Shown here: one piece after another, positions 8,756 through 12,381 of the stretch
How the letters are laid out: each line of letters begins with the position of its first letter
Numbering within the stretch: position 1 is the stretch's first letter
DNA from: SAR86 cluster bacterium AG-339-G14
GTDB lineage: Bacteria > Pseudomonadota > Gammaproteobacteria > Magnimaribacterales > AG-339-G14
Reading direction: 5' to 3'
NCBI GenBank assembly: GCA_003282105.1
Contig: QCAB01000004.1
Coordinates: 1-51,234, forward strand
Length of the DNA stretch: 51,234 nt
The notes under the pieces: model-generated
The model's input: the letters and a program-made list of their open reading frames with translations, nothing else
Databases searched by the model: none
Told to the model about the DNA's origin: nothing
Made by a program: the position numbers and the translations under genes

Positions 8756-9223
8756 GTGAAATTTTTATCTTCTTTCAATCAAAAATTAATTAATTTAATT
8801 TATTTTGATTTCATTATTCTGCTTTTTTTCAGGCTATACCTAGCTTATGTATTTTGGTTTGCAGGCATAAGAAAGATAGCTTGGGACAATGGAATTCCTA
8901 ACATTGATAGATTTGCGGGATTTCTGGCTGCTGGTGGAGAAGATAATCTAAATTTTATTTTTCCTCATTTTTTTGGTTGGTTAGCAGTTCTTGCAGAAGC
9001 AGGGGGCGCTATTTTTCTAACATTAGGCCTCTTCTCAAGATGGGCGATAATTCCATTAATTTTCACAATGTTGGTAGCTTTTTATTATCACTTTCCAAAT
9101 GGATGGAATTCAGATTCTGGAGGAGTTGAAATGACAGTGACTTATATTTTAATGTTGCTCGTGATTACAGTTTATGGACCAGGTAAATATTTTTCTTTAG
9201 ATTACTGGGTACTGAGAAAGTAA
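8756..9223 (+). CDS. DoxX family membrane protein
   Basis: RLYLAYVFWFAG..K, AEAGGA, GPGKYFSLD. Confidence 0.85.
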   Translation: MKFLSSFNQKLINLIYFDFIILLFFRLYLAYVFWFAGIRKIAWDNGIPNIDRFAGFLAAGGEDNLNFIFPHFFGWLAVLAEAGGAIFLTLGLFSRWAIIPLIFTMLVAFYYHFPNGWNSDSGGVEMTVTYILMLLVITVYGPGKYFSLDYWVLRK

Positions 9224-9224
9224 G

Positions 9225-9830
9225 TTGTTATTTCATTCAGATATAACTGTCGAACCAATCCTTAGAGTTGTTGAAATTCTAAATAAGGCCATGACTTTAA
9301 ATTTAGTAGATTGGAATGCCATGAATATTGCTACCGTAAACGTTGATGGTTCTCCATCTTCAAGGATGGTGCTACTAAAAAAAGTAGACGATAGAGGGTT
9401 TGTTTTTTACTCAAATTTCAATAGCAGAAAAGGAAAAGAAATTGAAAAAAATAATTCAGTTGCTCTTAATTTTTGGTGGAGAGAGCTTAAAGAGCAGATT
9501 AGAGTTGAAGGGAAAATTGAAAGACTCTCTGCAGAAGAATCAGATGAATATTTCAACTCAAGGGCATTGCAATCTAGGGTTGCTGCAATTGTTTCTAAGC
9601 AAAGTGAGAAAATAGAGTCTTATGAAAAATTAAATCAAGAAATTGAAGAGATGACAAAAAGTTTTGAAGATAAAGGAGAAGAGCCTGAAAGACCTGAGCA
9701 CTGCGGATTATATTTGATAGTTCCAAGTTCTATAGAGATCTGGAAAGAAGGAGATTACAGAACTCATTTAAGAGAGAAATTTACGTTAACTTCGAAAAAT
9801 ACCTGGGAAAGTTGCTTCTTATCTCCTTGA
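9225..9830 (+). CDS. pdxH: Pyridoxine/pyridoxamine 5'-phosphate oxidase
   Basis: PSSRMVLLK, GFVFYSNFNSRKG, QIRVEG, SDEYFNSR. Confidence 0.93.
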   Translation: MLFHSDITVEPILRVVEILNKAMTLNLVDWNAMNIATVNVDGSPSSRMVLLKKVDDRGFVFYSNFNSRKGKEIEKNNSVALNFWWRELKEQIRVEGKIERLSAEESDEYFNSRALQSRVAAIVSKQSEKIESYEKLNQEIEEMTKSFEDKGEEPERPEHCGLYLIVPSSIEIWKEGDYRTHLREKFTLTSKNTWESCFLSP

Positions 9831-9839
9831 TTTTTGAGT

Positions 9840-9875
9840 TATAATTATCACATAAGGCCGTTCGTAAAGGTCGTA
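9840..9875 (+). promoter_or_regulatory. -10 box (TATAAT 9840-9845) followed by a tRNA-Thr anticodon-like hairpin; putative thrS translational operator
   Basis: TAAGGCCG-TTCGTAA-AGGTCGTA: stem GGCC/GGTC, 7-nt loop with central CGT, ending 4 nt before the thrS ATG. Confidence 0.65.
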
Positions 9876-9879
9876 GAAA

Positions 9880-11808
9880 ATGATAGTAATCACTCTTCCG
9901 GATAATTCAAAAAAACAATTCGATAATTCTGTGTCAGCAATTGAAGTGGCTAGATCTATAGGCGCTGGCTTGGCCAAAGCTACAGTTGCGGCAAAAGTTA
10001 ATGGAAAACTAATCGATGCAACCGACTTAATAGAAAATGATTGTTCTCTTGAAATAATAAGAGCTCAGGATCAGGAAGGTTTAGAAATTATTAGACATAG
10101 CTGCGCTCATTTATTTGGTCATGCGTTGAAGCAGCTATTTCCCGAAGCTAAGATGGCAATTGGTCCGGTTATTAAAAATGGATTCTACTACGATGTGGAT
10201 TTAGATAATTCGTTAACACTAGATGATTTACAAAAAATTGAATTACGAATGAAAGAATTGGCTTCTTCCGCTTATCTCGTTAAAAAAGAAGTTGTACCAA
10301 AAAAAGTTGCAGAGGAAGTTTTTAAAAAAAGAAAAGAAAGCTATAAGTTAGAAATCTTAAAAGACATTGACGATGAAGAAACAGTTGGATTGTATCACCA
10401 CGAAGAATATGTTGACATGTGTAGAGGACCACATGTCGATTCCATGAGACACGTTAAAGCTTTTAAACTGTCTCATGTTGCTGGAGCTTATTGGCGCGGA
10501 GACTCAAAAAATAAAATGCTGCAAAGAGTTTACGGAACTCTGTGGAATTCGGATAAAGAATTAAGAAAACATTTAAGTAATCTGGAAGAAGCTTCAAAGC
10601 GCGATCATAGAAAACTAGGACAAAAATTTGACCTGTTTCATTTTCAGGATGAAGCGCCTGGAATGGTTTTTTGGCATCCTAAGGGCTGGACTATTTTTAG
10701 AATCTTGGAAGATTTCATAAGAGAAAAACAATTAAGGGCGGGATATGAAGAAATTAGAACGCCTCAAGTTATTGATCGTAAGCTGTGGGAAAAATCAGGT
10801 CACTGGGAAAAATATAGAGAGAATATGTACATTACCGAGATCGATGAAGAACAAGCTAATGAAAAAAGAGTGAATGCGCTTAAACCAATGAGTTGCCCTG
10901 GACATGTTCAAATTTACAATCAAGGCATAAAATCCTATAGGGATTTACCAGTGAGGTTGGCTGAATTTGGTTGTTGTCACAGACATGAAGCCTCTGGAAC
11001 TTTACATGGCTTGATGCGAGTCAGACAGTTGACTCAAGACGATGGACATATATTTTGCACTAATGAACAAATAGAATCTGAAACACAAGGGTTTATTAAA
11101 ATTCTTTCTGAAGTTTATACCGAACTTGGATTTAATGATTTTAGAATCAATTTATCTACTCGACCTGAAATCAGAGTGGGGTCTGATTTAATTTGGGATA
11201 AAGCTGAGAAAGCCCTAGAAGATGCGATAGATAAACTAAATTTAGATTATGAAATTTCGGCTGGAGATGGAGCATTTTATGGTCCCAAATTAGATTTTGT
11301 TTTAACCGATGCAATTGATAGGGAATGGCAATGCGGAACATTACAATTGGATTTTAATTTACCTGAAAGACTTGATGCAAAGTATGTCGGGGAAGATGGT
11401 GAAAAACACCAACCAGTGATGATGCATAGAGCAATACTTGGCTCAGTTGAGAGATTCATTGGAATCTTAATTGAAGAATACGATGGAAATTTTCCAATTT
11501 GGTTGGCTCCTATTCAGGCAGTGGTAATGAACATTTCACAAAAACATGAAGAAAAAGCTATTGAATACGCTGATTTTCTCAAATCTAAGGGTTTTAGGGT
11601 CAAATTAGACTTGAGGAATGAGAAAATCACTTATAAAATCCGCGATCACTCTATACAAAGAGTACCTTTTCAACTCGTTGTTGGAGATAAAGAACAAAAT
11701 TCAAATTCTTTGTCAGTTAGAGCCAGAAAAGGAGAGGATTTAGGAAGTATGAAGTTGGAAGAATTTTCTAACTTTCTTTCTAAAAAAATAAAATCAAAGG
11801 AGGTTTGA
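9880..11808 (+). CDS. thrS: Threonine--tRNA ligase
   Basis: TGS domain, [36 protein letters not shown]. Confidence 0.99.
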
Positions 11809-11841
11809 TTGAATAAAATTTTTTTAGTTTTAGCCTAGTTA

Positions 11842-12381
11842 ATGGCTCAACCAAGAAGGGCATTTGAAAAGAAAAATAAGCAGCCCATAAACCAATTCAT
11901 TAAAGCTGAAAAAGTAAGGCTTATCTCACAAACTGGAGAGCAGTTAGGAGTTGTCGAACTTAAAGAAGCTTTAGCAAAAGCAAAAGATCAAGAACTAGAT
12001 TTAGTTCAGATGAATAAAGACTCTGATACTCCGGTTTGCAAAATGATGGATTATGGTAAGCACCTATTCGATCAAAAAAAACAAAAGGCAGCTTCAAAAA
12101 AGAAAACAAAAAAAACCCAACTCAAGGAAATTAAATTCAGACCAGGAACGGATGAAAATGATTATCAAATTAAGATGAGAAATATTGTTAAATTTTTAAA
12201 TGATGGCGATAAAACCAAAATAACAATGAGATTTAGAGGAAGAGAATTAGCGCATAAAGAAATAGGTTTGAATCTATTGAAGAGAGTTGAATCAGATTTA
12301 GTTGATATTGCCAATGTTGAACAAGAACCAATTTCTGAAGGGAGACAGTTTGTAATGCTTTTGAGCCCAAATAGGAAATAA
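11842..12381 (+). CDS. infC: Translation initiation factor IF-3
   Basis: [27 protein letters not shown]; follows thrS. Confidence 0.98.

Follow-up and report, generated by a model that had tools for sequence, protein, structure and literature searches.

A 17-nucleotide anticodon-arm-like hairpin before thrS in a SAR86 family, a putative reduced form of the Escherichia coli thrS operator

Does the short segment of DNA ahead of thrS in the SAR86 cluster bacterium AG-339-G14 specify an RNA operator, by which threonyl-tRNA synthetase (ThrRS) could repress its own translation? The original prediction read there, from the letters alone, a minimal tRNA-Thr anticodon-arm mimic that would make up the entire thrS leader. 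The locus lies on the forward strand of the window, that is, the whole 51,234-nt stretch of DNA analysed. The pdxH gene (9225-9830; pyridoxamine 5′-phosphate oxidase, predicted start codon, TIGR00558 above cut-off) has its stop at 9830, leaving a 49-nt gap to the ATG of thrS at 9880. The latter gene (9880-11808; TIGR00418) encodes a 642-aa ThrRS with an N-terminal domain, the presumed repressor. infC follows 3′ of thrS, and the ORFs beyond it are presumably rpmI, rplT, pheS, pheT and ihfA. A pdxH match lies upstream of thrS in 32/34 loci of the bacterium's own family and in 8/8 loci of the sister family. Sequencing runs in which the genome occurs are labelled marine. By our search tallies, the order comprises four families and 22 genera. 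The own family (f1; four genera, genomes of about 1.1-1.3 Mb) is probably SAR86 RedeBAC7D11 and the sister family (f2) probably Magnimaribacteraceae, f3 and f4 denoting the remaining families of the order. PMC11582366 places Magnimaribacteraceae as sister of RedeBAC7D11 within the SAR86 order.

The other end of thrS has a feature of its own. At 11797-11844 in the window, a strong Shine-Dalgarno (SD) sequence, AAGGAGG, lies inside the final thrS codons and precedes a TTG-started mini-ORF of 9-12 codons that stops just before infC; the arrangement recurs in all seven own-family sequences read (the window, L169, L186, L187, L171, L170 and L172). Three own-family genera start infC with ATG and the fourth apparently with ATA; an apparent ATA start of infC is also what the SD near the thrS end aims at directly in the sister family. 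Possibly, this element is a coupling device that replaces the autoregulation of IF3 through a non-canonical start codon.

Both the TATAAT hexamer at 9840-9845 and the letters predicted to fold, UAAGGCCG-UUCGUAA-AGGUCGUA at 9853-9875, are present as claimed. The 8-bp stem originally drawn through them has to be cut down: only four of its pairs form, G9860·A9868 and A9855·G9873 being mismatches. The 8-bp version was rejected in the family as well, where its outer U-A and A-U pairs are kept in only 5/34 and 18/34 loci. What remains is a 17-nt core (9856-9872), in which the 5′ strand GGCC (9856-9859, equivalent to tRNA positions 27-30) pairs with the 3′ strand GGUC (9869-9872, equivalent to 40-43) through four base-pairs, one of them G·U. 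A G·A mismatch (9860 and 9868, the 31-39 equivalent) closes the 7-nt loop UUCGUAA (9861-9867), which holds the anticodon mimic CGU at 9863-9865; together with A9868, the 3′ strand reads AGGU, a weakly SD-like word that ends 8 nt from the AUG. Taken alone, the single window sequence is not above chance in its folding: the hairpin has a minimum free energy of -4.6 kcal/mol (z -1.25, 24/200 shuffles as good) and the 23-mer a z of -1.53. Within the 868-kb assembly (34% G+C, 70% complete), the core pattern has a single occurrence, the one before thrS. An Rfam scan detected no family at this leader or at the leaders of 11 loci, tRNA-Pro being its sole match in the window.

The hairpin becomes conspicuous when related genomes are read. 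Queried with the ThrRS N-terminus, 58 of 61 genomes yielded a thrS gene. Thirty-four f1 loci were fetched, and patterns anchored on the thrS coding start added nine genomes, so that 43 of 50 f1 genomes were read; the queries used gave no thrS start in the other seven (G007, G023, G032, G063, G067, G069 and G070). A pattern match in contig 1 of G003 was discarded as not being thrS. The core precedes thrS in 34/34 fetched loci, L006 and L031 included, and in 9/9 further genomes, hence in 43/43 read. Its consensus is G[G/A]C[C/U]-[G/C]-[C/U]UCGUA[U/A]-A-GG[U/C]C. Across the 34 loci, 12 of the 17 columns do not vary, among them U33, C34, G35, U36, A37 and A39, while the 6-10 nt between the -10 hexamer and the stem drift. 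The family spans four genera, with identity of the ThrRS N-termini going down to 58%. The stem is paired in 132/132 cells, against 0-51% in slid controls, and ends 5-7 nt before the ATG in all 34 loci. Among distinct rows, pair 28-42 is G·U in 23, A-U in 5 and G-C in 5; the commonest stem form (24/34) pairs only by virtue of the RNA G·U wobble. The 31-39 positions are unpaired in 34/34 (C·A in 20, G·A in 14). At the level of strains, RNA and DNA contigs show changes at 9836, 9848, 9849, 9851 and 9853; among the differences listed, only one, U to C at 9871 (two sequencing runs), falls in the core, where it turns G·U into G-C and keeps the stem.

The original prediction was borne out as to the xGU loop: G35 and U36 never vary in 34/34 f1 loci, and the outcome that would have refuted it, a loop GU that relatives do not share, was not seen. 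Inside f1 alone, stem covariation is not significant (232/500 shuffles reach the observed value), and no pair differs from its commonest form at both positions. Across 53 distinct cores from several clades, pairs 28-42, 29-41 and 30-40 covary, with 48, 53 and 53 cores paired against shuffle means of 38.2, 46.8 and 25.6; none of 5000 shuffles reaches this, by a naive statistic in which kin are not independent. The fourth pair is an invariant G-C.

These wider cores tell where the hairpin probably comes from. In E. coli the leader reads GATC-T-TTCGTGT-G-GGTC-ACCACTG, then AAGGA. Aligned to the thrS operator there, the f1 core matches, in register, the loop and the four innermost base-pairs of its domain 2. 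Among 61 other gammaproteobacterial loci, with E. coli in the count, all but L081, L087, L131 and L137 have a domain 2 with the CACCACUG-type tail (57/61). The full domain, CACCACUG tail included, stands in 30/30 sister-family genomes read, 17 of 47 having been left out for want of a match to the coding pattern. L069 and L039, to which no start was assigned, are outside the counts; the genome of L039 shows a full domain 2. G35 and U36 are invariant throughout (34/34 f1, 7/7 and, in the wider reading, 30/30 f2, 57/57 tail-bearing gammaproteobacterial and 14/14 Paracoccaceae loci), whereas all four bases occur at position 34 in one clade or another, as expected for threonine identity elements (PMC7373986, PMC4756836).

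Compared with these leaders, f1 has lost the outer pairs, the CACCACUG tail (0/34), the separate SD and the closing 31-39 pair, which forms in 0/34 f1 loci as against 55/57 tail-bearing gammaproteobacterial, 6/7 sister-family and 14/14 Paracoccaceae loci. No second anticodon-like hairpin (domain 4) was found within 200 nt in the 34 f1 loci other than one non-conserved chance hit, the same search recovering the E. coli control. Neither did we find AGGA, GGAG or GAGG 3′ of the stem in any of the 34, where only 5-7 nt remain. The sister family has a single hairpin too, in a predicted leader of 33-41 nt; it ends 10 nt from the AUG, and 30/30 leaders finish in CACCACTGA-nn-ATG, with no SD after the hairpin. 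We take the 17-nt hairpin, from its register and conservation, to be homologous to domain 2 of the E. coli thrS operator, but truncated. Of the possibly undescribed minimal switch first proposed, a conserved xGU-loop stem before thrS stands; it is not a separate invention, and a single hairpin is not the new part either, as the sister family has one too.

The ThrRS tree (FastTree, unrooted) bears on the direction of change. All f1 enzymes form one clade (support 98) beside those of f2 and other Gammaproteobacteria, which makes loss of the tail and outer pairs in the f1 ancestor the parsimonious reading, on the basis of parsimony and the published sister relation. The f3 and f4 enzymes (L043-L058, L178-L185) sit on another branch outside this clade, which suggests replacement of the thrS gene, and the hairpin is absent from both families (0/8 and 0/8). 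In several f3 genomes thrS looks leaderless; in f4 it lies directly 3′ of an ORF that we take to be cysS-like. Two thrS frames are short: L176 (G049 contig 1, near 22800) encodes 520 aa, with a frame break near the thrS start, and L182 (G059) 360 aa, with an early end; either an assembly error or a broken gene would account for them.

A tail-less core is not unique to f1, as 14 of 19 alphaproteobacterial loci, all Paracoccaceae (L059-L068, L070, L071, L073 and L079), carry GGCG-U-UUNGURG-G-CGCC with a threonine anticodon-like loop before thrS. This hairpin, a candidate thrS operator outside the Gammaproteobacteria that did not turn up in the literature searched, resembles the f1 one (compare GGCG-U-UUCGUAG-G-CGCC) in its 4-bp core, its xGU loop and a ThrRS without Asp549. 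Unlike f1, the Paracoccaceae loci have 31-39 paired, a separate SD (13/14) and 19-23 nt between hairpin and AUG. The mark of f1 is instead the fusion of the hairpin into the last 25 nt before the AUG.

How far, then, does the f1 element qualify as an operator of the E. coli type? Torres-Larios and colleagues are said to have noted, in 2002, conservation of the thrS operator in some Gram-negative bacteria. The two have in common the place in the 5′ leader of thrS, the 7-nt loop U-U-C-G-U-R-N with CGU, G35 and U36 in register, and an inner stem of G-C, N-N, C-G and C-G ending in GGUC. They differ in the stem (4 bp with 31-39 unpaired in f1, 7 bp plus a bulged extension in E. coli), in the distance from stem end to AUG (5-7 nt versus 22 nt, with a predicted f1 leader of 23-28 nt), and in the CACCACUG tail, domain 4, the U-rich domain 3 and the separate SD, all of which E. 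coli has and f1 does not. With three defining features missing (a full domain 2, domain 4 and an unpaired SD in domain 1), the f1 hairpin is a reduced form of the E. coli thrS operator, not a plain member of its class. Closer to it are the single-hairpin gammaproteobacterial leaders, which have one hairpin, an xGU loop and often a -10 hexamer close upstream; the sister family in addition shares with f1 the pdxH-thrS synteny and the lack of an SD. These other gammaproteobacterial and sister leaders keep the outer G-C and U-A pairs, the paired 31-39 and the CACCACUG tail that f1 is without, and their hairpins end 10 nt (sister family) or 19-26 nt (other Gammaproteobacteria) from the AUG. In other bacteria, T-box elements and thr attenuators link thrS expression to threonine or tRNA-Thr. 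The f1 leader shows no Rfam match, no terminator-antiterminator and no leader peptide, and has no room for a peptide or a terminator. Among titles and abstract openings in the literature searched, none dealt with thrS leaders in SAR86 or pointed to a one-arm thrS operator.

The enzyme that would read the hairpin was compared with its E. coli counterpart. The window ThrRS is identical to E. coli ThrRS at 376 of 636 aligned residues (59%) and keeps, besides the N-terminal domain, equivalents of N575, R583, E600 and R609, a set that we take to represent the anticodon-reading residues. All 26 f1 proteins have the N-terminal domain and the N575, R583 and E600 equivalents. The exception is Asp549, whose equivalent is Q in the window protein and E, Q or D among the 26, and S or T in the 14 Paracoccaceae enzymes, while Asp549 is invariant in the proteins that go with a tail (57/57 and 5/5); the T548 equivalent is S in f1. 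E. coli ThrRS contacts its tRNA through N575, R583 and D549, with Asp549 contacting U33 (PMC4756836). The change may be a co-adaptation or a weakened contact; it represents one or two evolutionary events, too few to serve as a test.

As to the tRNA being copied, five of five relatives have tRNA-Thr with GGU and UGU anticodons (loops UUGGUAA and UUUGUAA), and no CGU tRNA-Thr was seen among 20 of the 22 matches scanned in these five; the own assembly, 70% complete, yielded no tRNA-Thr. As the loop nonetheless reads CGU, it copies identity bases and not a resident tRNA. The assembly does contain an odd tRNA-like element on contig C9 (22439-22521, reverse strand) that, according to ARAGORN, has no normal anticodon; it sits between tRNA-Pro and tRNA-Arg(TCT), and its first and last letters resemble the neighbouring tRNA-Arg.

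The extent of the leader depends on the promoter. The TATAAT at 9840-9845 has no recognisable -35 element and predicts a transcript start near 9852; TATAAT or TAAAAT lies 6-10 nt before the stem in 33/34 f1 loci. A sigma-70 promoter scan did not call the site at 9840, for which there is no -35, and returned 2 hits against 2.6 expected. In the genome at large, -10 hexamers are most frequent at precisely 6 nt upstream of the start codon (21 of 417 starts, versus about 2-8 at other distances), and no -35 consensus emerges from 39 leaderless-type starts. Leaderless-type genes are thus common in this genome, and these two patterns support both -10-only promoters and the predicted start near 9852. 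RNA-library contigs extend 5′ of 9852 in three of seven runs (X1 from 9426, X6 from 9688, X10 from 9822); in runs X2, X3, X4 and X7 no contig covers 9816-9859 or a wider stretch around it. A search for terminators in 9200-10100 gave none. Read-through from pdxH, a possible source of RNA entering thrS, or DNA in the libraries may account for these contigs; assembled contigs, the only form of RNA evidence here, cannot fix a transcript start. The 28-nt RNA first proposed as the whole leader is therefore a predicted leader and perhaps not the only one.

A further part of that proposal has the 3′ arm serve as the SD. In this sub-case of autorepression, the tail and the old SD would have been lost, the AGGU arm then co-opted as SD, and ThrRS would hold the SD in the stem; we regard this as conceivable, on balance somewhat improbable. 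AGGU ends 6-8 nt before the AUG in 34/34 loci, within the 4-9 nt slot of the genome's SD words, and counts in that slot over 417 starts are raised for AGGA (40 vs 6-11), AGGT (17 vs 0-9) and TAGG (15 vs 0-6). A39 is invariant although its C or G partner cannot pair with it, and the 16S tail is intact in this genome. Against this, GG[U/C]C is an inherited stem arm that occurs also where a separate SD exists. In the sister family, where no SD follows the hairpin in 30/30 leaders, six of the 30 already have UAUAGG[U/C]C, in which U31 and A39 form a pair and the stem ends 10 nt from the AUG. Moreover, AGGC replaces AGGU in 5/34 f1 loci, weakening the duplex with the 16S tail to -2.9 kcal/mol from the -4.4 kcal/mol of the other 29, and even a -4.4 kcal/mol duplex is no better represented at starts (22.8%) than at internal controls (26.2%). 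A core SD word is found at only 67 of 417 starts (about 16%; background 18-28).

Two observations concern the SD system of these organisms more generally. The 16S tail is GATCACCTCCTAA in 3/3 own-family genomes (L139, L140 and L142), versus GATCACCTCCTTAA in one sister-family genome (L141). In the own genome, both TAGG and TAGGA are over-represented at the spacing of an SD.

The reading we favor, with a probability of about three in four, is a putative autorepression of thrS translation by ThrRS through mimicry of the anticodon arm, in competition with tRNA-Thr. Its counterpart in E. coli is documented: the operator consists of two hairpins read through G and U, and a change of the anticodon switches control to MetRS (reviews PMC7373986, PMC11088916, PMC9976931 and PMC3858243); the N-terminal domain of ThrRS excludes the 30S subunit (PMC7373986); and the ribosome binding site is bipartite, domain 1 carrying an SD that is unpaired and lies 3′ of the hairpin (PMC3858243). 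PDB 1KOG is listed for this operator/ThrRS system. In f1, free ThrRS would bind its own mRNA at the G35-U36 mimic and block ribosome loading. With tRNA-Thr plentiful, ThrRS would be occupied; the hairpin, weak at about -3.4 to -5.2 kcal/mol, would melt or be accommodated, and thrS would be translated. ThrRS in excess would clamp the hairpin inside the 30S footprint and exclude the ribosome directly. From ThrRS bound 5-7 nt from the AUG, we infer that such repression would operate whether or not the arm serves as SD; the hairpin should also act alike whether the RNA begins with the predicted leader of 23-28 nt or reads through from pdxH. Conservation, pairing-compatible changes, the domain 2 register, the position before the AUG and the features of the enzyme support this reading, and we count in its favor that the families with a ThrRS of another branch lack the hairpin. 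Against it stand the broken 31-39 pair and the changed Asp549; the loss of the CACCACUG tail and the lack of a second arm may also leave ThrRS binding far weaker than that of the E. coli operator.

Next in order, and improbable in our estimate, is another role for the RNA: it might shield the 5′ end of a short mRNA, adjust initiation, or be bound by a different anticodon-reading protein such as a tRNA-modifying enzyme. The hairpin does lie 0-4 nt from the predicted 5′ end, and f1 lacks both the second hairpin and the longer stem that strengthen ThrRS binding in E. coli; but a structural job could do without a fixed UCGUA loop, the genome has no copy of the core other than the one before thrS, and the hairpin appears to descend from a characterised ThrRS operator. 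Less probable still is a DNA site, in which the inverted repeat G[G/A]CC-N9-GG[T/C]C 3′ of the -10 would be bound by a regulator or belong to the promoter. Its fixed place 6-10 nt after the -10 and the GACC/GGTC and GGCC/GGCC variants, perfect DNA palindromes at 9/34 loci, would suit such a site, yet the commonest form pairs only as RNA, the center of the spacer is as invariant as the arms, and a single copy homologous to a known RNA operator is present in the assembly. The least probable is a non-functional relic or chance GC-rich spot, for which one may cite the modest folding z and the fact that conservation within one clade amounts to one inheritance, against 12 of 17 columns held constant across four genera next to freely varying non-coding letters, and strain changes that, among those listed, fall outside the core save the pairing-neutral one at 9871.

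Autorepression through a tRNA mimic being already known from E. coli, the mechanism itself would hold limited surprise. A broader scenario, which we put forward tentatively and consider doubtful, is that streamlining of the genome in an abundant ocean lineage pared the thrS operator down to a 17-nt arm that is at once repressor site and SD, in a leader of about 25 nt, with ThrRS alone toggling the SD between paired and free and positions 548-549 of its anticodon-loop surface changing along. If the merged arm were real, the families could be placed, in one order, as a reduction series that runs from a full domain 2 without SD, through a bare arm fused to the SD, to a leaderless or coupled thrS without operator. 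Either way, these leaders are a set of deletions, made by nature, in a translational operator of the textbooks. Should a 4-bp arm suffice for ThrRS feedback, what E. coli has in addition (a tail, a second hairpin, a split ribosome-binding site) would be refinements; the minimal requirement for an operator would be testable with a 28-nt RNA, which would also offer a compact regulatory part switchable by CGU to CAU. For the organisms themselves it would mean that streamlined marine bacteria, whose leaders are very short and mostly poor in SDs, have shrunk their synthetase feedback to keep it and have not given it up.
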